DNA of 64,000 nt, taken from Methanocaldococcus sp. 16A. GTDB lineage: Archaea; AGJL01; Methanococci; Methanococcales; Methanocaldococcaceae. The stretch is taken from the NCBI GenBank assembly GCA_049860595.1, contig CP187551.1, one strand, 5' to 3'. Positions 10,348 through 63,508 of the stretch are shown here, in pieces (position 1 is the first letter of the stretch; every line of letters begins with the position of its first letter). Made by a program: the position numbers and the translations under genes. The notes beneath the pieces were generated by a model that was given only the letters and a program-made list of their open reading frames with translations, had not been told where the DNA came from and did no database searches.

Positions 10348-10416
10348 TTATTTATTTTTTAGACTTTCTTTGACCTCTTTTGCTATAGCCCTACTCAATA
10401 TCGGAGGAACACTCTC
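10348..10416 (-). pseudogene. Stranded second copy of the methyltransferase 3' end (ESVPPILSRAIAKEVKESLKNK*)
   Basis: Reverse-strand translation parallels the gene C-terminus ESVPPILSRVIAKEIKKKL* at 10486-10545, with synonymous changes at E, V, R and L. Confidence 0.85.
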
Positions 10417-10420
10417 TACC

Positions 10421-10484
10421 GAACCTTTTATTAAAAGCTTCACCAAAATATAACACCTCCTCGCTTCGCTCGGAGGTGTAAATT
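10421..10484. repeat. Two-hairpin palindromic module, copy A
   Basis: GAACCTTTT-att-AAAAGCTTC-accaaaa followed by ACACCTCC-tcgcttcgctc-GGAGGTGT-aaatt; same layout as 33403-33465. Confidence 0.85.
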
Positions 10485-10485
10485 C

Positions 10486-11427
10486 TTATAATTTCTTTTT
10501 AATCTCTTTTGCTATTACTCTACTCAATATCGGAGGGACACTTTCTCCAATTTGATTATATTGAGCATCTCTTCCTCCAAAGAATACAAAATCATCAGGA
10601 TAGCTCATTAGTCTTGCCTGTTCTCTTACAGTTAATAATCTATCTTCATAAGGATGAACAAATCTACTTCTTCCTTTAACAGTTGGAGCTAACTTATGAG
10701 GATGGAGACGATACCAATTAAACATTAGTTTCTTCTTCCCTCTATATCTATATAACGCCTCTTCCCATTTTAATTTTGATATCATTTCTATTTTTTCCTT
10801 AGAAAGTTTTTTAATCTCATGGTTTTTAGCATCTTTTGGAATATCTTTTAATGCCTCCTCCACAACAACAATTTTATAGTCTTTCTTTGGTTTTAATTTT
10901 ATATTTGAAATAAACATCCTTGCTCTTTTTGAAGGATTTCCGTAATCTTCAGCTTTCAATATATTAAAATAAACCTTATGCCCTATGTCCCCAAACAACT
11001 TTTTTAGTTCATCTTTAATTTCTTTAATTTGTGGAACATTTTCCATAACAAATATTAAATCCTCATTTTTTTGTGTAAAGTAATCAACATAATTAATATA
11101 GTATAAAACTAACCTGCCGATTTTGTCTTTATACAATCTATCTAATGGATTGTCTTTAATTAGTTTATTTGCCTTTGTAAATGGCTCACATGGAGGAGAG
11201 CCGATAATTACATCAACTTTCTCATTTTTTATAAATTCATCAAATGCTTTTGGAGGAATTCTTTTTATATCATCCATCCACACTGGAGCTTTGATATTGT
11301 ATAAATAAGTTTTTACAACAGGTTTAAAGTTTTCAATAGCTCCCAAAATTTTAAAGTTTTCATCTAAAAAACCTTTTGAAAATCCTCCACATCCACAAAA
11401 TAAATCAATGACATTTATAGTTTCCAT
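10486..11427 (-). CDS. Orphan C5-cytosine DNA methyltransferase
   Basis: Motif I DLFCGCGG, motif IV SPPC, motif VI ENV, motifs IX/X RLLTVRE...QIGESVPP. No adjacent restriction enzyme. Confidence 0.9.
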   Translation of the reverse strand: METINVIDLFCGCGGFSKGFLDENFKILGAIENFKPVVKTYLYNIKAPVWMDDIKRIPPKAFDEFIKNEKVDVIIGSPPCEPFTKANKLIKDNPLDRLYKDKIGRLVLYYINYVDYFTQKNEDLIFVMENVPQIKEIKDELKKLFGDIGHKVYFNILKAEDYGNPSKRARMFISNIKLKPKKDYKIVVVEEALKDIPKDAKNHEIKKLSKEKIEMISKLKWEEALYRYRGKKKLMFNWYRLHPHKLAPTVKGRSRFVHPYEDRLLTVREQARLMSYPDDFVFFGGRDAQYNQIGESVPPILSRVIAKEIKKKL

Positions 11428-14233: not shown

Positions 14234-14299
14234 CCCATCACCTTAATGATTTTTATAAGCTAATCTATGATTTAGGTAAGTTATATTTAAATATTAATT

Positions 14300-14385
14300 A
14301 AGACTTTCGCAGGAATAAATAACATTATTATTGAATATAGAAACCTAAAGGTGTCAAAGTTTCAAACTTTAATGTATAAAGTGTA
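14300..14385 (+). mobile_element. Degenerate MITE-like palindromic repeat (GGACTTTCGCAG family)
   Basis: Left end AAGACTTTCGCAGGAATAAAT and core GAATATAG...CCTAAAGGTGTCAAAGTT match the 50447 copy; right end eroded. Confidence 0.7.
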
Positions 14386-14399
14386 GGGATATATTTTAA

Positions 14400-14776
14400 T
14401 ATTCAAATAATATTTATCACGCTAAAACTTTTTTATTTTTAATTTAAATCTTTTTAAAAACTTATTTTTTGATTTTAAGGATTTTTAGGAAACTTCAAAG
14501 GGCGGTTTATTTTCAATATTTTATTTATTTGGATGTATTAAATTAGTAAGATTTTTATGGAATTTTAACTAATTACTTTTAGATTAAAATTTCTCCAATA
14601 AATAGTTTGATTTTTTAGTTAAGATGTTTTATTATGCTTTTTATTATGGATGCATAAAGTATTTATATTAGTTGTGGATTTATAAATAAAATAAGTAATT
14701 GAGTGGTAGAAATATATACCTCATAAATTAAAACCCTAAAAATGCTTAATTTCAATAAATTCAAAAAATGCCACCT
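14400..14776 (+). promoter_or_regulatory. CRISPR leader
   Basis: AT-rich non-coding stretch abutting the first repeat; the degenerate repeats are at the opposite end of the array. Confidence 0.7.
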
Positions 14777-17700
14777 ATTAAAGTCAGACCGATTCGGTAT
14801 GGAAAGATATATCTAGATAGTCAATATAGCTAATTGATACTATTATAATTAAAGTCAGACCGATTCGGTATGGAAAGATATCATGAATGCTAGTAAATGA
14901 TTATAATTAAAGTCAGACCGATTCGGTATGGAAAGATAATATTAGACTAGATTCAGAATTATAGATTAAAGTCAGACCGATTCGGTATGGAAAGGGAAGA
15001 GTCAGAACATACTTGAAAAGAAGATATGGAATTAAAGTCAGACCGATTCGGTATGGAAAGTGTCTTTGAACATGTTCCCCCACCATAAGTTTAATTATTA
15101 AAGTCAGACCGATTCGGTATGGAAAGCAATCCTTGTTCATGGAAGTAATTACACAATTTTACATTAAAGTCAGACCGATTCGGTATGGAAAGGAATTTGG
15201 AGAGCAATATGCAAGATGGTTGGATAATTAAAGTCAGACCGATTCGGTATGGAAAGTTGAATCTCTAAGAAATACCATATTATTGTTCCAACGATAATTA
15301 AAGTCAGACCGATTCGGTATGGAAAGTTTTATAAAATCTATATTTTTCTGGAATATTGCCATTAAAGTCAGACCGATTCGGTATGGAAACGGGAAAGGAT
15401 ATTTATGAAACCATCTGGAATATAATATATTAAAGTCAGACCGATTCGGTATGGAAACATGGTTTATGGATTTGGACAAAAGTAAATATCTCTGCAAATT
15501 AAAGTCAGACCGATTCGGTATGGAAACACAATTACCGACGCAGTTCCACCTATAACTTCTGCAATTAAAGTCAGACCGATTCGGTATGGAAACTGAACAA
15601 GGATTGTGGGGGAAAGTAATAATTTACGATGAATTATTAAAGTCAGACCGATTCGGTATGGAAACTCTCCTTCATAAACACTAACAGTAATTGAGCTTGG
15701 ATACATTATTAAAGTCAGACCGATTCGGTATGGAAACATAATACAATCAACAATATTGAAGAAAGTGTAAAGAATTAAAGTCAGACCGATTCGGTATGGA
15801 AACTAAGTTTAATTTTGTTCTTTAAATCCTTCAAAGTTATTCTATTAAAGTCAGACCGATTCGGTATGGAAACATGTTTATTTATGCATTAGTTATGATT
15901 GCTGTAGATTAAAGTCAGACCGATTCGGTATGGAAACCAGTTCTAAAATTCTTGCCATTGCTGATAATTCAATTAAAGTCAGACCGATTCGGTATGGAAA
16001 CTTAAGAAATCAAGGTTTTGGGAATTGTTATGGAATTAAAGTCAGACCGATTCGGTATGGAAACCATCAGTATTGGAAAATAAACTAACATTAGCTTCAA
16101 ATCATTAAAGTCAGACCGATTCGGTATGGAAACTTAAGAAATCAAGGTTTTGGGAATTGTTATGGAATTAAAGTCAGACCGATTCGGTATGGAAACCATC
16201 AGTATTGGAAAATAAACTAACATTAGCTTCAAATCATTAAAGTCAGACCGATTCGGTATGGAAACTATATTGCTTTTTCAGGAGGTAAGGATTCTACAGC
16301 ATATTAAAGTCAGACCGATTCGGTATGGAAACAGCAGAGCTTCAAGCAGCACTTGCAGAAAGAAAAAGAAGAATTAAAGTCAGACCGATTCGGTATGGAA
16401 ACCTTAGAGATTGGAGCTGGAAGGATGTTTGGGCTTAATTAAAGTCAGACCGATTCGGTATGGAAACTATTCTCAATGCTGACCTGCTAATAAATCTCTT
16501 CACATCTAATTAAAGTCAGACCGATTCGGTATGGAAACTTTTATCTCTTTACAAAGAGGAACGCACTTGCTGTTAAATTAAAGTCAGACCGATTCGGTAT
16601 GGAAACCAGTATGGTTTAGTTCGTTATAGCTGAAGGCCTTAAATTAAAGTCAGACCGATTCGGTATGGAAACTTTATTACTGCATATATTGGTATGGTGG
16701 TGTTATTTATTAAAGTCAGACCGATTCGGTATGGAAACTTCTCTTGGTGTAACATTTTCACCAGCAAGAGCTCTAACTGATTAAAGTCAGACCGATTCGG
16801 TATGGAAACAGTGTTCCTGTTTTATAAATTTGTCCATTCACATATAATTAAAGTCAGACCGATTCGGTATGGAAACTGTTTGAATATACAATCTGTTTTT
16901 CTAAGTCGAATGTTATTAAAGTCAGACCGATTCGGTATGGAAACATTGCAAAAATAGCATATTATCATATAGTTTTGACAATTAAAGTCAGACCGATTCG
17001 GTATGGAAACTAGAAAGGTGTAGAAAAGAGCTAATATTATTTATGGTGAATTAAAGTCAGACCGATTCGGTATGGAAACTTGGGACTTCAGCTGAAGATG
17101 CTATATACGTCAGGAATTAAAGTCAGACCGATTCGGTATGGAAACCAAAAATTTTTTAGATTATGTAAGGAATAACTGTAACTATTAAAGTCAGACCGAT
17201 TCGGTATGGAAACTTGTTTTTGCCCTGATTTGGTTAGATAGATAAAAAAATTAAAATTAAAGTCAGACCGATTCGGTATGGAAACTACTTTACAAGAAAA
17301 GCAGATTATACTGGAAACTATTAAAGTCAGACCGATTCGGTATGGAAACGGAGTTGGGAAAACTGTGATGATGAGGAAAGTTGCTCAAATTATTAAAGTC
17401 AGACCGATTCGGTATGGAAACAGCTTCTTTTTCACTCCCATTTTCAATGAGTTCTTTAAATTAAAGTCAGACCGATTCGGTATGGAAACTACAGCTTGCT
17501 TTAGAGCTTGATAAAACATTCGACTTAGAATTAAAGTCAGACCGATTCGGTATGGAAACAAAGTTTTAGGCAATCCAATGACGTCAGCTAATTTATTAAA
17601 GTCAGACCGATTCGGTATGGAAACTCACAGCCAATAAAAAAAGCAAGATGAGATTAATAAAATAATTAAAGTCAGACCGATTCGGTATGGAAACGAGGAA

Positions 17701-19255
17701 GTTTTGGAACTGAAAACCAATGCAATGAGAAGATTAAAGTCAGACCGATTCGGTATGGAAACACGATTAATGTGACAACATTAGCAAATACTGTAATGAA
17801 TTAAAGTCAGACCGATTCGGTATGGAAACTTGCAAATTTAAAAAACAAATAAAATAAAGCTCTATTAAACATTAAAGTCAGACCGATTCGGTATGGAAAC
17901 AGCTCTTCAAGTAATTGTTTTTGCATCTTAAGATATTGAATTATTAAAGTCAGACCGATTCGGTATGGAAACTTCAACCCCCCCAATTTTTGTTGATAAT
18001 ATATGACAAATTAAAGTCAGACCGATTCGGTATGGAAACCAACAATTAGGATTTATGGATAAATTAGCTCTATCATTAAAGTCAGACCGATTCGGTATGG
18101 AAACTTAATGCATCTTCTGGTTTTAAATTTAGGATTTCGTCTAACATTAAAGTCAGACCGATTCGGTATGGAAACCCAACTGTTGAAGAAATACATCAAA
18201 AACAAATGCTATTAAAGTCAGACCGATTCGGTATGGAAACAGAAATTAGGTTACAAGAGCCGATAGAAGAAACATGATTAAAGTCAGACCGATTCGGTAT
18301 GGAAACTCATATCTACAACTTTGTCGATTATTTCCACAAGAAATTAAAGTCAGACCGATTCGGTATGGAAACATCTAATTGACTTTATTCTCTTCTCAAT
18401 ATCATCATCCTTCTCATTAAAGTCAGACCGATTCGGTATGGAAACATACATAAGCTGTTACTTTTGTGATATGAACACAGTTCTCATTAAAGTCAGACCG
18501 ATTCGGTATGGAAACTTTAAGAATTACAAAGTATTTAGATAATTCATTATTATTAAAGTCAGACCGATTCGGTATGGAAACATATTCTTTTTGTGATGCA
18601 AAGTATAAATTCCAGTATTAAAGTCAGACCGATTCGGTATGGAAACATATTCTTTTTGTGATGCAAAGTATAAATTCCAGTATTAAAGTCAGACCGATTC
18701 GGTATGGAAACTCAATCCAATGTCCATTTTCTTCATCTTCTCTACAACCACAATTAAAGTCAGACCGATTCGGTATGGAAACCTCTGTCTTTTCATCAAA
18801 ATAACAAATCCCGCATCTATTAAAGTCAGACCGATTCGGTATGGAAATATCCAAAAAGACGATGATGATATTGAGAGTATGATTATTAAAGTCAGACCGA
18901 TTCGGTATGGAAATATCCAAAAAGACGATGATGATATTGAGAGTATGATTATTAAAGTCAGACCGATTCGGTATGGAAATATCCAAAAAGACGATGATGA
19001 TATTGAGAGTATGATTATTAAAGTCAGACCGATTCGGTATGGAAATATCCAAAAAGACGATGATGATATTGAGAGTATGATTATTAAAGTCAGACCGATT
19101 CGGTATGGAAATAAGGGGCTTAATTGGACATAGAACATATACACATACTTTATAATTAAAATCAGATCGATACAGTATGGAAACGTTTTAGAAGTCCATA
19201 ACTCAAAGAAATCGGTGTTATAATTTTATTAAAATCAGACTGATAATGTAGGGGA
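14777..19255 (+). CRISPR. CRISPR array, repeat ATTAAAGTCAGACCGATTCGGTATGGAAAC (30 bp), about 65 intact plus 2 degenerate repeats; no cas genes in the window
   Basis: Regular 30-bp repeats with mostly 33-43-bp spacers from 14777 to 19112; degenerate copies at 19155 and 19228. Confidence 0.99.
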
Positions 19256-27774: not shown

Positions 27775-30700
27775 ATGGCTAAAAAATCTAAAAAAAATAA
27801 TGAAAATAAAAGTAATCTAAGATGTCCAATAGTTTGTGTTTTGGGGCATGTTGACCATGGAAAGTGTTTAATGCCTAACGAGAAAGTATTAACTCCTTTG
27901 GGAGAAATAAAAATAGAAGATTTATTTAAACAAGGAAAAGAGATTATTGAAAAAGATAATAATAAAATGATAAAAAAATTGGATATAGATGTTTATACAT
28001 TAGATGAAAATGGAAAAATTAAGATAATAAAAGCTCCTTATGTATGGAGATTAAAGCATAACGGAAAAATGATAAAGGTAAAGTTAAGAAATTGGCATGC
28101 TATAACAACAACACCTGAACATCCATTTTTAACAAATAATGGATGGATTAAGGCTGAAAATATTAAAAAAGGAGACTTTATAGCCATACCAAAAAAATTA
28201 GATAATAATATAAGCTTTAAAAAATTTGTAGAATTTTGTAAAGATAAATTTGATAATGAAAATATTTCATTGCCTAAATCATTAGATGAGTGGAAAACCA
28301 TATTTTATTTTGCTGGAAAGATATTTGGAGGCTATAAAGAATTTAAAAATGATAAACTAAATGAATTGGAAAAATTAATTAAGATTCTATTTGACCTAAA
28401 CATATTAAAAAATATCACATCATTTCCAAAGATATTATATATTGCTCCAAAGGAATTAGTTGCAGAGTTTATTAAAGGATACTTTGAAATGGCTGGAAAA
28501 ATTAATGCAAAACAAAATAGAGTTGAGATTTTTGGAATTTCAGAAGAATTTATTAGAGGATTTTCTATAATATTGTTGAGATTTGGAGTAATTTCAAAAA
28601 TTTATATTAGAAATAACAATGGCACAAAATATTACCAATTAAATATTGTAGGTAAAAGAAATTTAATAAACTTCAAAAATATTGGATTTGAGATAGATAT
28701 TTTAGACAAAATTATCGAAAAGAGCAGAAAGAGTGAGAAATATCCAATATATAAAGATATGAGAAGATTAAGAATTCTATTTGGATTAACGAAGAGTGAA
28801 GTAAATATTCCATATTATGAAAAATATGGGAATGGAGAAGAAATTCCTTCTTATGAAATTATTGAAAAATTTTTAAACTCATTAAAGCCAAAGAACTTAG
28901 ATAAGAAGATAAGAGTGTTAGAAGGGATAGAAAAAGATTTCAATTATTTAAAATCCTTTGAAAGTGATGGGTTAATAAAAGATAATAACTTAACTGAATT
29001 AGGAAAAGAGGCATTAAATATTTGGAAAAATCATGAATTTGGTGAAGATGATATTAAATACATGAAAAATTTAATTGAAAATATTGCATTTGTTGAAGTT
29101 GAAGATGTTGAAGTTATTGATTATGAGGGCTATGTGTATGATTTAACAACAGAAACACACAATTTTATAGCAAATGGTATTGTTGTACATAACACAACCC
29201 TATTAGATAAGATTAGAAAAACAAGAGTTGCTCAAAGAGAAGCTGGAGGAATAACCCAACATATTGGAGCGAGTGAGATTCCAATTGATGTTATAAAAAG
29301 AGTGTGTGGAGATTTATTAAAGATGTTAAAAGCTGATTTAAAAATTCCTGGATTATTAGTTATTGACACTCCAGGACATGAAGCATTCACTTCATTAAGA
29401 AAAAGAGGAGGAGCTTTGGCTGATATAGCTATATTAGTTGTTGATATAAACGAGGGCTTTAAACCTCAAACTATAGAAGCAGTTAATATATTAAGGCAAT
29501 GTAAAACCCCATTTGTTGTAGCGGCAAATAAAATTGACTTAATCCCAGGATGGAACTCTAAAGAAATTCCATTTATATTAAACTTTAATGAAAAGGCTCA
29601 ACATCCTAATGCTTTAACTGAATTTGAAATAAGATTGTATGAGAATGTAATAAAACCATTAAATGAGCTTGGTTTTGATGCTGATTTATATTCAAGAGTT
29701 CAAGATGTTACTAGAACTGTATGTATAATCCCTGTCTCGGCAGTAACTGGTGAAGGAATTCCTGATTTATTGATGATGGTTGCTGGATTAGCTCAGAGGT
29801 TTTTGGAAGATAGATTAAAGCTCAACGTTGAGGGGTATGCAAAAGGGACAATATTAGAGGTTAAAGAGGAAAAAGGATTAGGAACTACAATAGATGCAAT
29901 AATTTACGATGGAATAGCTAATAGAGGAGATTATTTAGTTGTAGGATTACCAGACGGTGTTTTAGTGACAAGAGTTAAAGCCTTATTAAAACCAAAACCA
30001 TTGGATGAAATGAGAGACCCAAGAGATAAATTTAAGCCTGTAAATGAAGTTACTGCTGCTGCAGGGGTTAAGATAGCAGCTCCAGATTTGGATAAAGTTA
30101 TTGCTGGATGTCCAATAAGGATTGTTCCAAAGGATATGATAGAGGAAGCAAAAGAAGAGGTAATGAGAGAGGTTGAAGAAGCAAAGATTGAGGTTGATAA
30201 TGAAGGAATTTTAATTAAAGCAGATACTCTTGGTTCATTAGAAGCTTTAGCTAATGAATTAAGGAAAGCAGGAGTTAAAATTAAGAAGGCAGAAGTTGGA
30301 GATATAACTAAAAAAGATGTTATTGAGGTTGCATCATACAAGCAGAGTAATCCATTACATGGAGCAATAGTAGGATTTAATGTAAAAATCTTACCTGAAG
30401 CTCAGAAAGAAATTGAAAAATATGACATAAAAGTGTTTTTAGATAATATTATCTACAAGTTAGTTGAGGACTTCACAGAATGGGTTAAAAAAGAGGAAGA
30501 GAGAATTAAATATGGTGAATTTGAAAAGCTCATTAAACCAGCTATTGTTAGAATTCTACCAGATTGTATATTTAGACAAAAAGACCCTGCAATTTGTGGA
30601 GTTGAAGTTATCTCTGGAACATTAAAAGTTGGTTATCCTTTAATGAGAGAGGATGGAATGCAACTTGGTTATGTTAGAGAGATAAAAGATAGAGGAGAAA

Positions 30701-30933
30701 ATGTCAAAGAGGCAAAAGCAGGTAAAGCTGTTTCAATAGCTATAGAAGGAAGAATTACATTAAAAAGGCATGTTGATGAAGGAGATTATATGTATGTAGC
30801 AGTTCCAGAAAGCCATGTTAGAGAGCTATATCACAAATACATGGATAGATTGAGAAACGACGAAAAAGAGGCATTATTAAAATACATGGAATTAATGCAA
30901 AAACTGACAAATAATATATTCTGGGGAAGATAA
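27775..30933 (+). CDS. infB: Translation initiation factor aIF5B (IF-2) with an intein in the P-loop
   Basis: GHVDHGK|intein|TTLLD, GGITQHIGA, DTPGHEAF and NKID motifs. Confidence 0.97.
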   Translation: MAKKSKKNNENKSNLRCPIVCVLGHVDHGKCLMPNEKVLTPLGEIKIEDLFKQGKEIIEKDNNKMIKKLDIDVYTLDENGKIKIIKAPYVWRLKHNGKMIKVKLRNWHAITTTPEHPFLTNNGWIKAENIKKGDFIAIPKKLDNNISFKKFVEFCKDKFDNENISLPKSLDEWKTIFYFAGKIFGGYKEFKNDKLNELEKLIKILFDLNILKNITSFPKILYIAPKELVAEFIKGYFEMAGKINAKQNRVEIFGISEEFIRGFSIILLRFGVISKIYIRNNNGTKYYQLNIVGKRNLINFKNIGFEIDILDKIIEKSRKSEKYPIYKDMRRLRILFGLTKSEVNIPYYEKYGNGEEIPSYEIIEKFLNSLKPKNLDKKIRVLEGIEKDFNYLKSFESDGLIKDNNLTELGKEALNIWKNHEFGEDDIKYMKNLIENIAFVEVEDVEVIDYEGYVYDLTTETHNFIANGIVVHNTTLLDKIRKTRVAQREAGGITQHIGASEIPIDVIKRVCGDLLKMLKADLKIPGLLVIDTPGHEAFTSLRKRGGALADIAILVVDINEGFKPQTIEAVNILRQCKTPFVVAANKIDLIPGWNSKEIPFILNFNEKAQHPNALTEFEIRLYENVIKPLNELGFDADLYSRVQDVTRTVCIIPVSAVTGEGIPDLLMMVAGLAQRFLEDRLKLNVEGYAKGTILEVKEEKGLGTTIDAIIYDGIANRGDYLVVGLPDGVLVTRVKALLKPKPLDEMRDPRDKFKPVNEVTAAAGVKIAAPDLDKVIAGCPIRIVPKDMIEEAKEEVMREVEEAKIEVDNEGILIKADTLGSLEALANELRKAGVKIKKAEVGDITKKDVIEVASYKQSNPLHGAIVGFNVKILPEAQKEIEKYDIKVFLDNIIYKLVEDFTEWVKKEEERIKYGEFEKLIKPAIVRILPDCIFRQKDPAICGVEVISGTLKVGYPLMREDGMQLGYVREIKDRGENVKEAKAGKAVSIAIEGRITLKRHVDEGDYMYVAVPESHVRELYHKYMDRLRNDEKEALLKYMELMQKLTNNIFWGR
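27865..29193 (+). mobile_element. Intein (443 aa) with degenerate LAGLIDADG domain
   Basis: C1 (CLMPNE), block B TPEHPF, block F VYDLT, terminal HN followed by extein Thr. Confidence 0.93.
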
Positions 30934-32174: not shown

Positions 32175-32244
32175 TCTATTCAACCACTAATAAAAAATAA
32201 AATAGTTGCATAAAACTAAAATTTTAACTAAAAAATTTATTTAG

Positions 32245-32340
32245 AATAGGATTTTCGCAGTTTATATATTAAATTTGGAACTTTAATACTTTTAGGTGTC
32301 TATATTCATAAAATATATTTATTCCTACGAAAGTCCTATT
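32245..32340 (-). mobile_element. MITE-like palindromic repeat (GGACTTTCGCAG family)
   Basis: Inverted ends AATAGGATTTTCGCAG / CTACGAAAGTCCTATT with the family core. Confidence 0.85.
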
Positions 32341-32350
32341 AGAAATTCCT

Positions 32351-32761
32351 TTAATTTCTACCATATATAGCATACAACCTGCTAAACTTATCAAGAGTGT
32401 TGCATAACTTATTATTTAATATTTCTTCAAGGGTTTCAATAGCCCCTGTAGGACATACTTCTTTACAAATTTCAACATCTCTCTTATAGCATCCATCACA
32501 TTTTATTGCTATTCCATCAATTCTTATAGCTCCAAACGGACATGCTAAGGCACATAAACCACATCCAATGCATTTATCTTTTATAACTACTACTTTATCG
32601 TCAATCCTCTCTATAGCATTTTCTGGACATGCATATAAGCAGGGATTTTTATCACAATGCATACATTTTATTGGGAATTCGTTAAAGGTGATTCCATTTA
32701 TTGGGCAACTTCTCTCGCATCTTCTACAACCAATGCAAGAGCCAATATTAACTACTACCAT
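32351..32761 (-). CDS. porF: Pyruvate oxidoreductase-associated polyferredoxin PorF
   Basis: Multiple CxxCxxCxxxCP motifs; last gene of the por operon. Confidence 0.8.
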
Positions 32762-32773
32762 AATTTCACCAAA

Positions 32774-33268
32774 TTATGGTTGAACTTTTGCATCTATGGT
32801 TATTTTTGAAATTAAGCTGTTATCTGTTTTTTGTGATGGTAGAGACATCTTTCCAAATAAATCTAAGGATTTGTCTCTCTTAGCAAATATTAGCTCATTT
32901 ACATCAACAAGCTCTAAGCATCTCTTTGAGCATGCTTTAACACATGCAGGCTCGTCTCCATCGCATAAAATACACTTGTATGCTTTGTCTTCCATTAATA
33001 TAGCACCAAATGGACATGCTAAGGCACATAAACCACATCCAATACAAACTTCCTCATTTAAATATACATAACCATCTTTATGCTCAATTGCTAAGACTGG
33101 GCAGACTTCTTTACATGGAGCTGAAGCACATTGCTGACAAAGAATTGGGATGTATTTACCATCTTTCTCCATTATACTTATTCTTCCTACTTTATTTTTT
33201 TGCATACATGCTTTAACACAATCTCCACAGTTATCACAGTTGTAGTTTGCCATTATTATTTTTTTCAT
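32774..33268 (-). CDS. porE: Pyruvate oxidoreductase-associated Fe-S protein PorE (CooF-like)
   Basis: CDNCGDC, CQQCASAPC and [10 protein letters not shown] at 33268 follows a GAGGTGA SD. Confidence 0.82.
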   Translation of the reverse strand: MKKIIMANYNCDNCGDCVKACMQKNKVGRISIMEKDGKYIPILCQQCASAPCKEVCPVLAIEHKDGYVYLNEEVCIGCGLCALACPFGAILMEDKAYKCILCDGDEPACVKACSKRCLELVDVNELIFAKRDKSLDLFGKMSLPSQKTDNSLISKITIDAKVQP

Positions 33269-33312
33269 CTCTATCACCTCTAAATTCAAAAATATAATAG
33301 AAGAAAATGAAA

Positions 33313-33340
33313 GAAACTTTAAAGAAAGTTTCACCAAAAA
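33313..33340. repeat. Solo copy of hairpin 1 of the two-hairpin module
   Basis: GAAACTTT-aaag-AAAGTTTC-accaaaaa. Confidence 0.7.
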
Positions 33341-33359
33341 TAAATTATTTATATCTCTT

Positions 33360-33398
33360 TTATAGCCCCAACAACTTACATTTTTCATCAATATATCT
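33360..33398 (-). pseudogene. Stranded second copy of the porB 3' end ([12 protein letters not shown])
   Basis: Encodes the same 12 aa plus stop as 33472-33510, with 6 synonymous and no non-synonymous differences. Confidence 0.9.
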
Positions 33399-33402
33399 CC
33401 AA

Positions 33403-33465
33403 ATGAAACTTTAAGAAAGTTTCATCAAAGCTAACACCTCCTCGCTATGCTCGGAGGTGTAAATT
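33403..33465. repeat. Two-hairpin palindromic module, copy B
   Basis: ATGAAACTTT-aag-AAAGTTTCAT-caaa followed by ACACCTCC-tcgctatgctc-GGAGGTGT-aaatt. Confidence 0.85.
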
Positions 33466-33471
33466 AAAATA

Positions 33472-34359
33472 TTATAAACCTAACAACTTACACTTTTCGT
33501 CTATATATCTTTGAATTCTTTCAATATCCTCGTCAGTTAAGTGTCTATATCTTTTCTGCATCTTCAAATACTCTCTAACTGGCTTTCTCTTAGCTGGTTT
33601 GTATGTAATTCTAAATTCCCCATTTTCAATCTCATAAAGTGGGAAAACTCCAGTTTCAACAGCCAATCTTCCAATTTCTATTGTTTTTTCTGGAGGATAT
33701 CCCCAACCTGTTGTACAAGGCTGTAATACTTGTATGAATTTAGGCCCTTCGATACTTAAAGCTTTTTTAACCTTTCTCATGAAATCTTCAGGATATGAGA
33801 TGCAAGCAGTAGCTACATAAGGAATGCCATGAGCTGCCATTATCATTGTCATGTCTTTTTTAGGTCTATCCTCTCCTCTAATTTTTGAACCTGCTGGAGA
33901 GGTTGTTGTAGCAGCCATAAATGGAGTTGAGGAACTTCTCTGTATTCCAGTGTTCATGTAAGCTTCGTTATCGTACATAATATACAATATATCGTGCCCT
34001 CTCTCCATAGCACCACTTAATGCCTGAAAACCAATATCTGCTGTTCCACCATCTCCTCCAATAGCTATAACATTTATTTTTTTATCAGCATATTTTCCTC
34101 TCTTTCTTTTTAATGCTTTTACAGCTGCCTCAATACCACTTGCTGTTGCTGCAGCGTTTTCAAATGCTGTATGTATCCACGGAACTCTCCATGATGTTTC
34201 TGGGTAGGGTGTTGTCATAACCTCTAAACATCCAGTAGCGGTTGATATAATTGTGTTTTTTCCAGCCACTTTTAGCAGTAACCTTGCTACAATTGCAGCT
34301 CCACAACCAGCACATCCTCTATGCCCAGGGGCAAAGTATTCCTCTCTTGGAAATTGCAT
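33472..34359 (-). CDS. porB: Pyruvate:ferredoxin oxidoreductase beta subunit
   Basis: GHRGCAGC, ThDP motif GGDGG...[16 protein letters not shown]. Confidence 0.95.
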
Positions 34360-34404
34360 TACAATCACCTTATAAAAATTATTAAATTAAATTATTAGTA
34401 GTAT

Positions 34405-35565
34405 TTACTCTTTTAATCCAATCCAAACAGTTTCATCATCTTCTGCCTTTTCAACATGGTTAATTATTGTTTTTATATCCTCTACCTTAATATCTCTTCC
34501 ACCCAATCCAACAATGTAGTTGCAAACCTTCTTATTCTTTAAAATTGATGCCATTTCAATTCCTAAAGCTCCCTTATTAAATCCAAATGAGATATTTTTA
34601 TCTAACACAGCTATATTTTCTGCATCTTTTAAAAGTTCCTTAACGTCTTCTTTTGGGAATGGTCTATAAGTTTTTATCCTCAACAATCCAACTTCTTTTC
34701 CTTCTTTTTTAAGCTCATCAATAACATGCTTTATAGTTCCACAAACAGAACCCATTGCTACTAAAATTGTATCTGCATTATCTAAGTTGTATGCCTCAAG
34801 TAATCCATTTCCATATTTTCTCTTAAATCTTTCAGCAAACTCCTCATTAACTTCTTTAATTACTTTCTTAGCTCTCTCCATAGCTTCCTCTATTTGCTTT
34901 CTTGTTTCCATGTAGCAATCTGGAACTCCTACAGGTCCTTGAGTTATTGGCCTATCAGGGTCTAAATATGCGTGTTTTGGCTCATAAACTCCTAAGAATT
35001 CTCTAACTCTCTCTGCTTTTGGAATTGTTACTGGCTCTACTGTATGCGTTAATATAAATCCATCTAAACAAACCATAACTGGCAATAAAACATCTTCATT
35101 CTCAGCTATTTTGTAAGCTTGAATAATGCTATCGAGTGTTTCTTGGTTATCTTCAACATATATCTGAATCCATCCACTATCTCTCTCTGCTATTGAATCT
35201 TGGTGGTCGTTCCATATATTTATAGGAGCTGATAAAGCTCTGTTAGCAACCATCATAACTATTGGTAATCTCATTCCAGAGGCTATAAATAACATTTCAT
35301 GCATCAAAGCTAAACCCTGTGAAGCTGTTGCTGTAAATGTCCTTGCTCCAGTTGCAGCAGCTCCAATACAGGCAGACATTGCTGAGTGCTCGCTCTCTAC
35401 TTTTATATATTCAGCATCCAACTCTCCATTAGCTACAAACTCAGCTAACTTCTCAACACATGTTGTCTGAGGAGTTATTGGATAAGCAGCTATAACATCA
35501 ACATCAGCTAATTTAGCCGCTTCAGCAGCTGCTGAAGTCCCTGTAATAACTTTAACTTCACACAT
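34405..35565 (-). CDS. porA: Pyruvate:ferredoxin oxidoreductase alpha subunit
   Basis: AYPITPQT, ESEHSAM and TASQGL motifs. Confidence 0.95.
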   Translation of the reverse strand: MCEVKVITGTSAAAEAAKLADVDVIAAYPITPQTTCVEKLAEFVANGELDAEYIKVESEHSAMSACIGAAATGARTFTATASQGLALMHEMLFIASGMRLPIVMMVANRALSAPINIWNDHQDSIAERDSGWIQIYVEDNQETLDSIIQAYKIAENEDVLLPVMVCLDGFILTHTVEPVTIPKAERVREFLGVYEPKHAYLDPDRPITQGPVGVPDCYMETRKQIEEAMERAKKVIKEVNEEFAERFKRKYGNGLLEAYNLDNADTILVAMGSVCGTIKHVIDELKKEGKEVGLLRIKTYRPFPKEDVKELLKDAENIAVLDKNISFGFNKGALGIEMASILKNKKVCNYIVGLGGRDIKVEDIKTIINHVEKAEDDETVWIGLKE

Positions 35566-35589
35566 CTTTTCCACCTTTAATTATTTAAT

Positions 35590-35850
35590 TTATTTCTCTT
35601 CTCTAACCTTTGTTATTGCATTTACAGGACATTCATTCATACAAATTAAACATCCTTTACAGTAATCATAGTCTATTTTAAAGTTTCCATTTTCATCTTC
35701 TTGAATAGCTCCTTCAGGGCAGAATATATAACAATTTTCACACTTTACACATTTTTCGTTGTCTAAAATTGGTCTAAAAGTTCTCCAGCCCCCAGTCTTG
35801 TTTTTAATTGAATTTCCAGCCTCATATATAATAGCTGCAATTGTAACCAT
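35590..35850 (-). CDS. porD: Pyruvate:ferredoxin oxidoreductase delta subunit
   Basis: KTGGWRTFRP and two ferredoxin motifs (YCKGC). Confidence 0.95.
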   Translation of the reverse strand: MVTIAAIIYEAGNSIKNKTGGWRTFRPILDNEKCVKCENCYIFCPEGAIQEDENGNFKIDYDYCKGCLICMNECPVNAITKVREEK

Positions 35851-35868: not shown

Positions 35869-36405
35869 TTATCCATATTTTTTTAACATCTCATTGTAAG
35901 CTACTTCAGCAGCTTTGGCATTCTTCTCTCCCAATTTTCCTTTGAATGTGTCTAATATAGCTTTTTTAACTGATTCTAATGTAACTAATTTTGTAGCTCC
36001 AGCAAATGCTCCGACCATTGCAGTATTTACTATAGGAATTCCTAAAACATCTAAAGCTATTCCTGTAGCATCAATTGTATATGTTTTAAATCCTAAATCT
36101 AAATCATCTTTAACGGTGTTAATTACAACAGCACCATTTTCCTTTAACCCCTCAACAACATTAACACTTTCAAGCAGTGTAGCATCTTGAACTACAACAT
36201 AATCTGGGTTGTAGATTTGACTTCTCAATCTGATTTTTTTATCATCTATTCTTGTAAATGCCATAACTGGAGCTCCTCTTCTCTCAACACCAAAGAATGG
36301 AAATGCTTGGCAATATTTTCCATCATAAAAAGCAGCTTTAGCTAATATTTGAGCGGCAGTAACAGCACCTTGCCCTCCTCTTCCGTGAAATCTAATTTCT
36401 ATCAT
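35869..36405 (-). CDS. porG: Pyruvate:ferredoxin oxidoreductase gamma subunit
   Basis: [11 protein letters not shown] and FGVERRGAP motifs. Confidence 0.95.
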
Positions 36406-40879: not shown

Positions 40880-42922
40880 ATGGAAAGTAAAAATGATTTC
40901 ATGATAAACATATTTAAGATTGACACTAAAAATATAAACTTGCCTAAAAAAGCATATTTATACAAAATAAACATTGAAGAAAATCTTGGTGAACAAAAAC
41001 TACAAGAAATCTACAAGACTTTAGCTAATACTTATGGGCATGTTGATGAGAATAATATACTCTATTCTTATAGAAGAGTAAAATACCTCCCACCAAACAT
41101 TAAAAATGTAACACTCATTACCCATGATACTTTAAACTTAGATGAATTACCTAACGAAATTTCAAGAGAAGTTTTAAGAGTATATTTCAAAAATGTTTTA
41201 AAAAAAGATGTTAGAACAATATTACGAAACCTTGAAGAGAAGTATTTACCAAAAAATACTGTAGGTAATTGGAATATATATTAAGAGAATATCCTATGGT
41301 TAAAAGAGGTATTTTATATGAAACTCTAAAAGATAAGGGAAAAATAGAAGAGTTTGATGATAACCAACCAGTAATTGCTGGAAAAAAGTCTAAAATCTAT
41401 ACTGATGTTCTATATTTCCTACCACAATATTGTTACCCGGCATACCACCCATACTTGGTAAAAAATTATGAATTGGCTGGAATTAACAATATAAAAAAAA
41501 ATAGTAAGTTATAACAAACCATTTATATTACAAGATGTGTGTAAAATGTTAGACTATTTAGAATTCTCAGAAGATTATCAAATAATCCCACTAAGAGAAC
41601 CGAAACTCAAGGCTATGTTCATACAAAACAATACTATAACAACAAAAACTGTCTCATCAACTGCAAAATTATTTGGAAACATTACACAATTAGCAAAAGG
41701 AATATATCCTAACTCTCTACCATGCCCACTCAAAATTCCAGATTATTTAAAAAACGCTGAAAAAATAATAGTATTCATATTAGTCCTCGATAACCTTACA
41801 CAACAAGAAAAAGAAAACTTTGTGAAAATTCTCAAAACTGCCTTTGGAATATATAATAACATGAGAGATGTGTGGATAGAATTTAAAATTCCCATGCCAT
41901 ATTTTGATTTTCGTAAAAAGATAATCTATTTTGAAAACTCAAAAAAAGGAATTTCAGAAGCTATAAAAAAGATAAACAACATTTGTAAAAATCACAATAT
42001 AGATTTCAATACTGTAAAATTTGCATTCATATTTGGAAAACGCAGTAATAATGATTTTGATTATTATCAGCCTTTAAAAAAAGCATTATTTGATAACCAT
42101 ATACTAAGTCAAAATATCTTAGTTGATGATACTAAATCTCTCTATGCATACTCAAATATTATTTACGACATGCTCACTAAATTAGGTTATAAGTTTCTTG
42201 CCCTCGAAAAAGAGTTACCTTATGATTACATTTTAGGAGTGGATGTAGGTTACAGTGAGGCATATACAGGAAGAGTTGCTTGTTGCACTGCTATATTTGA
42301 TAGTAATGGACTACTAAAAAATCTCATTCCTATAAGCATAGAGAATTTCCCAAACTCTGAAAGTGCGAGAATAGGAGAACTATTAAGAAGAATTGATGAT
42401 AGTCTAATATATAATGATATTAATTTTAGCAATTCAAGAATATTATTACTTAGAGATGGGTATTTACAAAGAAGAGAAATAAAAGAACTAGAAGAGTTTT
42501 CAAAAGAGAGGGATTGTGAAATTACATACATTGGAGTTAAGAAAAATATACCATTCCAATTATTTGTCAGCCAAGAGGAAAATAACAATAAGAGAAAATT
42601 CATTTATTACCCATTGTGTGTTCGTTTAGGAGATATATATTTACTCTGTGCTCATAAGACAACCTATGGTTATCCACGATTTATAAAAATTCATGAAAAA
42701 TATGAGATAAAAAATGGTATTGGAAAAAAAACACCAATAAGTGAAAAGGATATTAATATAATATATCAACTAACCGCATTAAACCACTCTTCAGTAGGTA
42801 ATCCAAGCAATCTAAGATTACCATGTCCAATATATTATTCAGATATGTTAGCTAAAGCCCTAAAAAAAGGTTGGAAATTGAGAGAAGAATTATTAAAAGA
42901 GGGTGTATTGTATTTTATTTAA
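40880..42922 (+). pseudogene. ago: Prokaryotic Argonaute split into three frames (40880-41284 N domain; 41269-41514 PAZ remnant; 41537-42922 L2-MID-PIWI)
   Basis: MID Y.PLK...SQNI and LTKLG; PIWI ILGVDVG, NSESA, LLRDG, RLPCPIYYSD (DEDD); C-terminal LYFI; PAZ-end DNQPVI...YFLPQYC. Confidence 0.88.
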
Positions 42923-43413
42923 AAAATCCTCTTTAATATATGATTAACATTAAACACCAATAACATTATAGTATATAAAAAAATAAGAAGGTAACTTTGG
43001 CAGTTATGGGATATAAATGTGGAATTGTGGGGATTTGTGGTGATAATGTGAAGTTCATAGTTAAATATATCCTTCTCTATTTTCCCCTTTAATATCTTTA
43101 TCATAAGTTCTATATTTTTCATATATTTACACATATTATTAATTATTATCTTAACATCCTCTGCAATAATTTAAATAATAAAAGCTTTTTTCCTAAAAAA
43201 ACCAAATTATTTATCGAGAAAATCTTAATTTAAAAATAATTATCTAAAATCTTATAAAAATTTTACTAATTTAATGTATCCAAATAAACAAAATATTAAA
43301 AATAAGCTACCCATAAAAATTATCTAAAAATCCTTAAATCTAAAAAATAACCATTTAAAAAGATTTAAATTAAAAATAAAAAATTTTCAGCGTGATAACA
43401 AAAATTTAAAAAA

Positions 43414-44148
43414 TTAATAAACATCAAATAACTCTCCTAATGTTATTTTTTTATCTGTCTTAACTAACTCTGGAATTTTTCCTTTAATACCAACTTTATC
43501 TCTAACAACAACAAAAACTCCATCTATCTTTTCTATTTCATCTGCCTTTTCTAATGCGTTGTTTATCATCTCTTCCTCATCTCTTCCTCTTGAAGCGTTA
43601 CATATTGATGTTGCTGCTGCATCTGCTATAGCAGAGCTTTTAGCAAAAACAGTAACTGCATCAGCCTCTCCAAAACTTATTGAATGCCCTACTGTTGCTG
43701 ATGAAGTACAAACACCATAAATATTTTTAATTTTCTCCTTCTTTAATTTAAATCCAACTTCTCCAGTAATTTTAGAGTTTCCAGCATATAAGCCAACAAC
43801 AACATCTTTTTTAGCCCTCAGGCATATATCTCCACCATTTTCAGCAATGATGTTTTTTGCCCCAATATTTTTAATTAGCATCTCCGCTATAGCTCCAGCA
43901 ACACTCGCCATAGGTCCTACATTAGCAATTTCTCCAGCCATAGCCATTAACTTTACAATTTCTGGAGAATCTGCATCTATAGAAATTGGATAGTAAGATG
44001 TTAAGAAATAAGGATTTTTTAATATATATCTCTCCAATTCTAATCTATTTTTTAAGATAATTTCTTCTGCTTTCTTGAAATACCTCTTATCATCTACCTT
44101 TAAAAGTATATTCGTTTCTTTTATTATGATTCTTTTTTTAAACCACAT
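43414..44148 (-). CDS. UPF0280 / ApbE-like protein
   Basis: GPMASVAGAIA, ENGGDI and CTSSATVGHSISFG motifs. Confidence 0.88.
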   Translation of the reverse strand: MWFKKRIIIKETNILLKVDDKRYFKKAEEIILKNRLELERYILKNPYFLTSYYPISIDADSPEIVKLMAMAGEIANVGPMASVAGAIAEMLIKNIGAKNIIAENGGDICLRAKKDVVVGLYAGNSKITGEVGFKLKKEKIKNIYGVCTSSATVGHSISFGEADAVTVFAKSSAIADAAATSICNASRGRDEEEMINNALEKADEIEKIDGVFVVVRDKVGIKGKIPELVKTDKKITLGELFDVY

Positions 44149-45121: not shown

Positions 45122-45171
45122 AAAAATCACCTTCCATCAGTAATAAAAATAAGATTTAAAGTTTATCTTAA

Positions 45172-45249
45172 AAATAGGACTTTCATAGGAATAAATATAT
45201 CTATCGACATCCAACTATCCTTATAATATAAATTGCGAAAGTTCTATTT
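45172..45249 (+). mobile_element. MITE-like palindromic repeat, shortened; supplies the stop codon of the adjacent gene
   Basis: AAATAGGACTTTCATAGGAATAAATAT...TTGCGAAAGTTCTATTT. Confidence 0.75.
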
Positions 45250-48038: not shown

Positions 48039-48073
48039 AAACCACAAAACGAAGTTTCTAATTAAATACTTTT

Positions 48074-48171
48074 AATAAGACTTTCGTAGTTAATGTATTA
48101 TTTTTGGAACTTTGACACCTTTAGGAGTCTATATTCATAGCAAATATATTTATTCCTGCGAAAGTTCTATT
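48074..48171 (-). mobile_element. MITE-like palindromic repeat, near-identical inverted partner of 50444-50539
   Basis: Reverse complement differs from the 50447 copy at about 4 internal positions. Confidence 0.88.
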
Positions 48172-48186
48172 TTAAATTACTAAGAG

Positions 48187-50174: not shown

Positions 50175-50443
50175 ACCTGTCACCTTCAAATTAAGCTTAT
50201 AATGTAATTTAGAATTAAGATGATGATTTGAACAATTACAAATTTGTGATAAACTTCCTAAATATTATTTATATTATTTAAATGGTTTTGACATTTAAAC
50301 ATTTTTTTAGAATTAAATATTTTTTTAGATAAATTAATAACCCCTATCAGAAATTTTTACCTCTATAAATATTTTTCGATTTGTGGTAAATAGAAAACTT
50401 AATTACTACCATAAAATGATAATATAATAATTGTGGTTAATAC

Positions 50444-50539
50444 ACAGGACTTTCGCAGGAATAAATATATTTGTATGAATATAGACTCCTAAAGGTGTCA
50501 AAGTTCCAAAAATAATACATTAACTGCGAAAGTCCTGTG
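50444..50539 (+). mobile_element. MITE-like palindromic repeat (GGACTTTCGCAG family), immediately upstream of mer
   Basis: Perfect inverted ends CACAGGACTTTCGCAG / CTGCGAAAGTCCTGTG. Confidence 0.9.
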
Positions 50540-50540
50540 A

Positions 50541-51557
<1,017 letters not shown>

Positions 51558-56483: not shown

Positions 56484-56511
56484 ATTTTCACCTTTCAAAA
56501 ATTTTTTAAAA

Positions 56512-56606
56512 TATAGGATTTTCGCAGTTTATATATTAAATAAGGAACTTTGACACCTTTAAGTGTCTATATTCAATAAAAAATTTATTACTGCGAAAGT
56601 CCTATA
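56512..56606 (-). mobile_element. MITE-like palindromic repeat (GGACTTTCGCAG family)
   Basis: Ends TATAGGATTTTCGCAG / CTGCGAAAGTCCTATA; internal GACAC...GTGTC hairpin. Confidence 0.88.
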
Positions 56607-56719
56607 ATTACCTTCCTATACCATAAATCTTTAGTTATGAATAGACCGAAAATCTTATATTATTTAGTAGTTAATAGATGTAGCGATATTTAAATAAAAA
56701 ATATCTTGTGGTGATAAAA

Positions 56720-61900: not shown

Positions 61901-61993
61901 TTTTTAAAATTTTTTATTTTAGATTATAATTTATATATTTAAATATATGGATAATATAAAATCTTAGAGAAACTATAAAAATCATTATACTAT

Positions 61994-62015
61994 TATAGGA
62001 CTTTCGCAGGAATAA
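61994..62015 (+). mobile_element. Solo end of the MITE-like repeat upstream of aspS
   Basis: TATAGGACTTTCGCAGGAATAA with no matching right end. Confidence 0.7.
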
Positions 62016-62055
62016 TAGTATTTATTAAAAAACACATAATACAATGGTGAATAAA

Positions 62056-63360: not shown

Positions 63361-63410
63361 TTTTTGAATACAATTTTTCTATTTTTGTAACTTTTAGGAT
63401 AATTTTATTA

Positions 63411-63508
63411 AATAGGACTTTCGCAGGAATAAATTTTTTATTGAACATGGAGACACCTTTAAGGTGTTTAAATTCCAAATTAATATATAAAGCTGCGAAA
63501 GTCCTATT
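63411..63508 (+). mobile_element. MITE-like palindromic repeat (GGACTTTCGCAG family)
   Basis: Perfect ends AATAGGACTTTCGCAG / CTGCGAAAGTCCTATT; internal ACACCT-tta-AGGTGT. Confidence 0.9.

Follow-up and report, generated by a model that had tools for sequence, protein, structure and literature searches.

The displacement of gene ends is an event of a kind known in bacteria. At Rhs, contact-dependent growth inhibition (CDI) as well as type VI secretion system (T6SS) effector loci, the passages of PMC5361080 cited here describe C-terminal displacement that leaves orphaned 3' regions, and homology-facilitated illegitimate recombination as its route. Insertion with long target duplication was recorded mostly around restriction-modification genes in competent bacteria, and the cited part of that survey reports no archaeal case that passed its screen (PMC2853133). 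Repetitive extragenic palindromes (REPs) lie near stop codons, and a position less than 15 bases from the stop was shown to stall ribosomes in Escherichia coli; the cited part of this REP survey counts palindromes in two Methanocaldococcus genomes (PMC12306157). Here we describe a locus of Methanocaldococcus sp. 16A at which the 3' end of porB, the gene for the beta subunit of pyruvate:ferredoxin oxidoreductase, is present twice around a small palindromic module. The sequence analyzed, hereafter the window, is a stretch of 64,000 nucleotides from contig CP187551.1 (assembly GCA_049860595.1). The locus looks like the scar of recombination between diverged alleles rather than a working gene feature, and we give about an even chance to its being a C-terminal displacement scar, in which one-sided recombination joined two diverged porB alleles at the palindromic module.

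Both 39-base copies correspond to the last 13 codons of porB, stop codon included, and encode the same peptide. The copies were identical at 33 of 39 positions (85%), and every one of the six differences was silent, the codon pairs of the in-gene copy (A) and the stranded copy (B) being ATA/ATT, GAC/GAT, AAG/AAA, TTA/TTG, GGT/GGG, and TTA/CTA. A degenerate 39-mer pattern matched exactly these two sites in the window (Table 1) and none in 100 shuffled sequences. The porB product was 98% identical to a protein cluster labelled M. jannaschii pyruvate synthase beta, and because PorB homologues terminate in the same ...KLLGL tail, the in-gene copy completes a normal protein; the stranded copy has no porB body upstream. 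The identical core common to the two copies was 11 bases long, and the sequences 3' of the two stop codons could not be aligned, the spacer behind the stranded tail beginning with AAGAGATATAAA. The copies are 73 bases apart, and this interval holds two hairpins. The earlier note on this DNA had claimed a porB C-terminus present twice with six silent and no non-synonymous differences, and a hairpin module between the copies inside the porB-porE junction; translation and the pattern search confirmed the first claim, and the two hairpins within 73 bases bear out the second.

Comparison loci numbered 80 among the matches listed, including three from Methanocaldococcus and five from other Methanococcales; the nearest of them, Methanocaldococcus sp. 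28A (locus L001), was 96.3% identical over the por genes and 95.0% identical further downstream. Depending on transition bias, 0.18-0.36 of the single substitutions in the 39-mer are silent, and the probability that six random substitutions would all be silent ranged from 2e-5 (no transition bias) to 7e-4 (kappa 8), or 0.013-0.035 if only three of the six changes fell in an unconstrained copy. Chance, or decay of a duplicate in place, is an unlikely source of the silent-only pattern. Silent differences affect 6 of 12 codons between the two tails, which has a probability of 3e-5 under the rate at which porB differs between the window and 28A (18/299), of 3e-3 under the corresponding porE/porF rate (43/304), and of 0.25 under the rate between the window and L002 porB (110/299), with which it is compatible. 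As this last rate is the only one that fits, the distance between the two tails is about that between two species. The claim of two lineages diverged under purifying selection is thus supported by the all-silent probability (P ≤ 7e-4) and by the species-level codon divergence. The stranded tail would have been free of selection for a short time only.

These figures bear directly on in-place duplication, either a long target-site duplication made when the module inserted or slippage, followed by drift. Direct repeats do flank the insert, a feature also of insertion with long target duplication (PMC2853133), and both copies share AGA and AAG codons that were missing from the outgroup loci. An unconstrained copy should gain mostly non-silent changes, however, against the probabilities given above for six or three changes; had the in-gene copy changed silently in place, the unconstrained copy would be scrambled. 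The spacers past the two stops are unalignable, and the published duplications in the cited passages are near-identical (44/46 and 47/47; PMC2853133) compared with 33/39 here. We regard this explanation as very improbable.

A second instance was found at a C5 DNA cytosine methyltransferase gene located between alaS and purA, where positions 10348-10546 repeat the porB architecture of in-gene tail, module, and stranded diverged tail. Hairpin 1 of this locus (10453-10479) begins 6 bases past the stop codon and has two mismatches relative to the porB copy, and a stem resembling hairpin 2 lies at 10421-10441. The methyltransferase pair leads to the same conclusion as the porB tails: over 19 aligned codons we counted four silent differences and four replacements between the two methyltransferase tails, the replacements falling at positions that vary among natural homologues. 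The stranded tail retains the family-consensus residues ESVPP.LS.AIA, including a consensus alanine, and resembles the tails of other Methanocaldococcus methyltransferases, while the in-gene tail matches the closest relatives (96% and 92% identical). The flanking repeats span 39 bases in the case of porB and about 57 bases in that of the methyltransferase gene, with a 17-base identical core at the latter; the start-less 3'-end fragments behind the intact genes measure 39 and 69 bases, respectively. In the window, both copies of hairpin 1 sit between an in-gene tail and a stranded tail, and outside the array of clustered regularly interspaced short palindromic repeats (CRISPR) no other GC-rich hairpin (at least 5 G/C in a stem of at least 7 bp) is present.

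When the last 20 residues of every long frame were compared with the 400 bases downstream, CRISPR artefacts being set aside, the porB and methyltransferase duplications were the only ones in the window, and hairpin 1 was present at both. The same scan of the 80 other loci (1.18 Mb, 4336 frames) gave seven matches scoring at least 45. The top match, an acidic tail that recurs about 100 codons downstream, we take to be the known shared tail of ribosomal stalk proteins; the remaining six, with scores of 46-66, came from haloarchaeal or actinobacterial loci.

The module is about 64 bases long and was modeled with a covariance model (R1); the porB copy could be aligned with the methyltransferase and 28A copies. 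One arm of hairpin 1 resembles a Shine-Dalgarno sequence and the other is its complement (anti-Shine-Dalgarno); at porB the hairpin starts 11 bases past the stop codon. An ATG at 33425-33423 starts a mini-frame, MKLS followed by a stop, at hairpin 2. As RNA at 37 °C the hairpin pair had a predicted energy of -25.2 kcal/mol (z = -5.8 relative to shuffled sequences), and at 85 °C only hairpin 1 was predicted to fold (-2.5 kcal/mol). The junction between module and stranded copy can be parsed in two ways, as TTTCATTT or as ATTTGGAG, the latter 8-mer being identical to the Shine-Dalgarno part of the 28A porE leader. R1 found three copies in the window, two full and one partial, and with the one in 28A four copies are known. 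No family reached its gathering score in an Rfam search of 33150-33650 (best of six weak matches, 26 bits against a cutoff of 70), and a plasmid collection yielded two chance matches to the module of 24-26 bases (E = 7), none of them archaeal. The module has internal hairpins and no terminal inverted repeats. A transposon or a miniature inverted-repeat transposable element (MITE) with target-site duplication was rejected on this ground and because the flanking repeats are long and diverged.

The partial copy lies directly behind the stranded porB tail and lacks precisely hairpin 1, R1 model positions 8-32 being replaced by a single base. The stranded unit therefore reads 'tail, stop, spacer, module' and is an allelic version of the unit that precedes it. 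A frame beginning with GTG at this copy (33263-33334) stays open as far as the porE start, which it reaches in frame (VKLSLKFLSFSSIIFLNLEVIE-MK...), and this accounts for an over-long open reading frame (ORF) of 205 codons at 32774-33391. That the two units are allelic versions of one locus is what an assembly artefact, with two strain variants joined in tandem, would also produce. Such a join requires real reads containing the junction, and the exact words shared are at most 12 bases long; moreover, a second locus 23 kb away has the same architecture, and a CRISPR array of 67 repeats in the window was assembled through. We consider an artefact highly improbable.

The locus of 28A carries an identical in-gene tail (39/39), the same nine bases past the stop codon, and the module (R1, 88 bits), which there runs directly into the porE leader without a stranded copy. 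The module and the duplication are therefore separable, and the tandem pair is polymorphic among close relatives, since 28A has no counterpart of the 92-base stranded unit. This unit is bounded by a 10-base direct repeat, across which a single repeat-mediated deletion, or the reverse insertion, would interconvert the two states. Single tails were found in L002 (86% identical), in M. indicus (L006, 76%), and in the Methanothermococcus loci; strict hairpin patterns matched none of these, and R1 gave seven weak matches over the 119.6 kb of L002-L008, none of them convincing (17.7 bits and E = 0.37 for the strongest). The proposal that the union is recent rather than an ancient fixed feature agrees with these data, namely a 28A locus lacking the stranded copy and single tails with no module in L002-L008. 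The polarity proposed in the note, with an in-gene copy matching a different lineage, found no support among the loci compared, as that copy is identical to 28A over all 39 bases and continuous with 167 further identical bases.

Two further differences from 28A were observed in the porB-porE spacer. About 205 bases are inserted in 28A between the porB stop and the module (L001 10903-11110); they comprise a MITE of the AGGACTTT(C/T)GCAGGAATAAAT family and a perfect GC hairpin (GAATGCCTTCC...GGAAGGCATTC) missing from the window, and the spacer seems to be a place where small elements land. In addition, hairpin 1 has its inner 11 bases in opposite orientations in the window (33434-33460) and in L001 (11118-11144), with one mismatch to the reverse complement and eight to the direct form, and the 8-bp arms and flanks are the same. 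Such a flip is typical of template switching at a palindrome or of re-insertion.

The minus strand encodes all genes of the por operon (porG, porD, porA, porB, porE, porF, in this order), each with the expected Pfam domains, and the genealogical depth relative to 28A changes at the module junction. Synonymous divergence (dS) between the window and 28A was 0.19 for porG, 0.19 for porD, 0.13 for porA, and 0.105 for porB; it was 0.31 for porE and 0.30 for porF, followed by 0.15 for a tetratricopeptide repeat (TPR) gene and 0.15 for aIF2. Counted as silently differing codons, porEF (32351..33274) had 43 of 304 against 178 of 2327 in the flanks (Fisher P = 4e-4). Because the distance to L002 is similar on either side of the junction (0.13-0.14), porEF is unlikely to have had a faster clock. 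A three-way count assigned 30 derived changes in porEF to the window and 26 to 28A, a near-even split that points to neither genome as the recombinant. The deep tract spans from the module junction to a MITE and an indel at about 32350. By these distances, the locus is a mosaic of at least three ancestries, one for porGDAB and the unit that follows it, one for the stranded tail and its spacer, and one for the leader and porEF. The MITE-like family in the window has the ends AGGACTTTCGCAGGAATAAAT and occurs in both orientations; one of its copies bounds the porEF tract of raised divergence. Synteny with 28A stops just upstream of porG (window 36511/36512, L001 7848), and the 7.8 kb upstream in 28A have no window counterpart except MITE pieces.

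Table 1 Features of the porB and methyltransferase loci and the MITE-like repeats, in window coordinates.
Feature	Position	Strand	Basis or detail
porG	35869-36405	-	Pfam
porD	35590-35850	-	Pfam
porA	34405-35574	-	Pfam
porB, pyruvate:ferredoxin oxidoreductase beta subunit, complete	33472..34368	-	Pfam TPP_enzyme_C, E = 7e-25
In-gene tail copy A, 12 residues and stop, true porB end	33472..33510	-	Translation; 39/39 identical to 28A
Composite module, full form (TAATTTA, hairpin 1, TTA, hairpin 2)	33403..33466	-	R1 91 bits, E = 2e-16
Hairpin 1, 8-bp GC-rich stem	33434..33460	-	ACACCTCC, 11 bases, GGAGGTGT
Hairpin 2, AT-rich	33405..33423	-	GAAACTTT CTT AAAGTTTC
Junction bases ATTTGGAG, module to stranded copy	33397..33404	-	Overlap the first two bases of the stranded copy
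Stranded tail copy B, 12 residues and stop	33360..33398	-	Translation; none in 28A or L002-L008
92 bases missing in 28A	33313..33404	-	10-base direct repeat TTAAAGTTTC at 33405-33414 and 33313-33322
Second module copy, precisely without hairpin 1 (hairpin 2 at 33313-33332)	33311..33351	-	R1 32 bits, E = 2e-4
porE	32774-33274	-	Pfam
porF	32351-32761	-	Pfam
C5 DNA cytosine methyltransferase, in-gene tail ...ESVPPILSRVIAKEIKKKL and stop	10486..11427	-	NCBIfam dcm; PF00145 homologues
Second full module	10419..10485	-	R1 76 bits, E = 3e-13
Stranded methyltransferase tail ESVPPILSRAIAKEVKESLKNK and stop	10348..10416	-	Repeat family D19; tail scan
MITE-like repeats	14290-14380, 32230-32350, 45167-45220, 48059-48181		
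MITE-like repeats (continued)	50437-50547, 56497-56616, 61992-62036, 63405-63507		

From these observations we infer a mechanism of recombination, a role for the module, and a polarity. DNA from a diverged Methanocaldococcus lineage would have recombined with the resident chromosome, the exchange being homologous on the side of the conserved gene and closed on the intergenic side by an illegitimate join, because the module and the unalignable spacer offered no homology. One allele's tail, stop codon, and module would thereby have been placed ahead of the other allele's tail, leaving porB intact and the second tail as dead DNA, 39 bases presumably without function. The module may have acted as a heterology or a fragile site that halted homologous exchange. 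At both loci the join lies 0-8 bases past hairpin 2, and this position, together with the flip of hairpin 1 between close strains, would fit a palindrome at which replication stalls or breaks.

As to polarity, we lean weakly towards the in-gene tail and the module having entered the ancestor of the window genome and 28A, after which a deletion between the two hairpin-2 repeats would have removed the stranded piece from 28A. Silent divergence of porB was about 1.5 times that of porA relative to L002 and L006 (for L002, 110/299 against 96/389 codons) and equal to it relative to the Methanothermococcus locus L003; the raised value weakly suggests that the in-gene tail and module were the incomers. 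The identity of the 8-mer ATTTGGAG with the 28A-type porE leader, and a porE leader beside the stranded copy that is only about 8% different from 28A, hint faintly in the same direction. Polarization of the six differences with L002-L008 placed derived states in both copies, and the comparison of 8 versus 7 silent codons to L002/L006 gave no discrimination. Likewise, the mismatch-free porB end was rejected as a signal of recent transfer, since a longer stretch of 200 bases occurs elsewhere in the alignment with 28A.

The opposite polarity, in which the in-gene tail and module are resident as in 28A and the stranded copy is a foreign piece acquired in the window's lineage alone, is rather unlikely in our estimation, though the next to be considered. 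A break just downstream of hairpin 2 would then have been repaired with a short foreign piece starting inside the donor's porB tail. A single event accounts for the presence of the stranded copy in the window and its absence from 28A, the two genomes agree at every base of the in-gene tail and of the 167 bases upstream, and the doubled dS of porEF beside the stranded copy is what entry of foreign DNA would lead one to expect. Yet the divergence of the stranded from the in-gene tail (6/12 codons) far exceeds that of porEF from 28A (43/304; P = 3e-3), hairpin 2 and the adjoining porE leader are only about 8% off 28A, and the foreign patch would have to be only about 65-90 bases long, or the donor itself a mosaic.

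Several points weigh against a displacement scar of the favored polarity. It requires a second event, in 28A, and the 167-base tract identical to 28A is unexceptional, as the operon also contains a mismatch-free stretch of 200 bases (34625-34426) and a 100-base window at 35122-35023. No porB among the matches listed ends in the stranded variant, and the second lineage is postulated rather than seen. With only four module copies known, the link between module and displacement comes from two loci. Both tails open with AGA (Arg), and Arg occupied that position in none of 20 PorB relatives (17 Lys, 1 Asn, 2 Glu); the shared codon would suggest close kinship of copies A and B, the alternative being that its first two bases derive from the junction 8-mer ATTTGGAG. 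Finally, in all three window modules an ATG or GTG at hairpin 2 shares its reading frame with the coding stretch that follows, which may be chance (about 0.04, post hoc).

These start codons would have a purpose if the arrangement had been retained for a function, with a ribosome that terminates 6-11 bases upstream opening hairpin 1, freeing the Shine-Dalgarno sequence, and translating a small frame, either as translational coupling or to make a micro-protein. The motif GGAGGTG does stand 8-9 bases ahead of the ATG or GTG in both full modules, and at the methyltransferase locus the module GTG (10443) opens a 31-codon frame that ends in the stranded tail. At porB, however, the frame is closed after four codons by a TAA in the loop of hairpin 2, a hairpin that is not predicted to fold at 85 °C; 28A has no stranded tail, and its flipped hairpin 1 removes tandem G-A pairs on the mRNA strand. 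Functional retention is accordingly hard to credit.

Improbable, to a lesser degree, is that the module is a tiny non-autonomous mobile cassette that brings along a working host-gene tail for use as its homology arm and so displaces the native one. It would be a selfish element of Methanocaldococcus, spreading between lineages and genes by means of a synonymous working tail, its Shine-Dalgarno/anti-Shine-Dalgarno palindrome providing the point of breakage or stalling where the exchange ends; insertion would never inactivate even essential genes, and a native tail would be stranded at each arrival. At two unrelated genes the boundaries of the module are the same, its start lying 6-11 bases past the stop codon and the stranded tail following within 0-8 bases at both, and it is present in the window (three copies) and 28A (one) with no convincing match in the 119.6 kb of L002-L008. 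Against a cassette stand the number of loci (two), the lack of a visible mobilizing enzyme (a scan of 59 window ORFs turned up no integrase, transposase, or reverse transcriptase), the 28A module without a stranded tail, and the copy without hairpin 1; ordinary recombination at a heterology gives the same picture. If the module were such a cassette, it would represent a new way for a tiny element to insert harmlessly beside essential genes.

Other features of the window were recorded outside these loci. The CRISPR array (14776-19150) has about 67 repeats (ATTAAAGTCAGACCGATTCGGTATGGAAAC) and internal exact duplications (15972-16103 equals 16104-16235, and three identical 132-base units start at 18818); its upstream flank (14395-14616) has a 222-base inverted match of 80% at 43196-43417. 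An ORF of 461 residues (41537-42922), outside the synteny with 28A, has Piwi as its sole domain (E = 2e-21), gave no match in NCBIfam, and may encode a short Argonaute-like protein. The aIF2 (IF-2) gene (27775-30933) contains an intein with N- and C-terminal splicing regions.

If the locus is indeed a displacement scar, it would be direct sequence evidence that hyperthermophilic methanogens exchange DNA across species-level distances within a core energy-metabolism operon, with a small palindromic module marking the end points of such exchanges, and displaced gene tails would offer a cheap genomic marker of past recombination between archaeal lineages. Among the known systems that leave gene ends in duplicate, integrative elements restore the 3' end of their target gene with an element-borne tail at the attachment (att) site, and the native tail comes to lie at the far end. 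The porB locus likewise has a replaced native tail at the far end and copies of different histories that were both under selection; it differs in that the 'element' is just 73 bases and the 59 ORFs include no integrase. Identical cores of 11 bases at porB and 17 at the methyltransferase gene are different and so give no common recombination site, and a site-specific integrative element was ruled out on these two grounds. Diversity-generating retroelements confine differences to the adenines of one repeat and have a reverse transcriptase nearby. This candidate was also rejected, as the differences here are A/T, C/T, G/A, A/G, T/G, and T/C and the ORFs scanned contain no reverse transcriptase.

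Insertion with long target duplication resembles the present loci in its direct repeats of more than 30 bp around an insert without transposase or integrase, and one of our two loci is a DNA methyltransferase gene. According to the cited passages (PMC2853133), its target copies are near-identical and its empty site is one copy without the insert; here the copies are 85% identical with silent differences only, the insert is 73 bases long, and the relative 28A retains the insert and lacks one repeat. With 33/39 identity, unalignable spacers, and a 28A that keeps the module, this system was rejected as well. Like REPs, hairpin 1 is a short, GC-rich, imperfect palindrome, repeated and within 15 bases of the upstream stop codon. 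Unlike REPs, which the cited passages (PMC12306157) do not report as flanked by duplicated gene tails, it was seen in only two copies in the 64 kb of the window, and no gene resembling a REP-associated tyrosine transposase (RAYT, Y1 transposase-like) was found in the window. No description of the module or of displaced tails in Methanocaldococcus was found in the literature searched, subscription journals being outside its coverage, and the module and the archaeal core-operon setting appear undescribed.

The closest parallel is C-terminal displacement at Rhs, CDI, and T6SS effector loci. In the cited account (PMC5361080), a constant gene body is joined to an incoming 3' end that takes over the frame, and the old end becomes a start-less downstream fragment, as at porB; the proposal made there, and ours here, is of homology anchoring one side and a join without homology closing the other. 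The tails of those loci encode different toxins with immunity genes, so that diversity is selected, whereas the porB tails encode the same peptide; the setting here is an archaeal core metabolic operon, the displaced piece measures only 39-69 bases, and a palindromic module stands at the join. That the tails came from different alleles, as displacement entails, is what the silent-only differences, the species-level codon divergence, and the relatives of the methyltransferase tails indicate.

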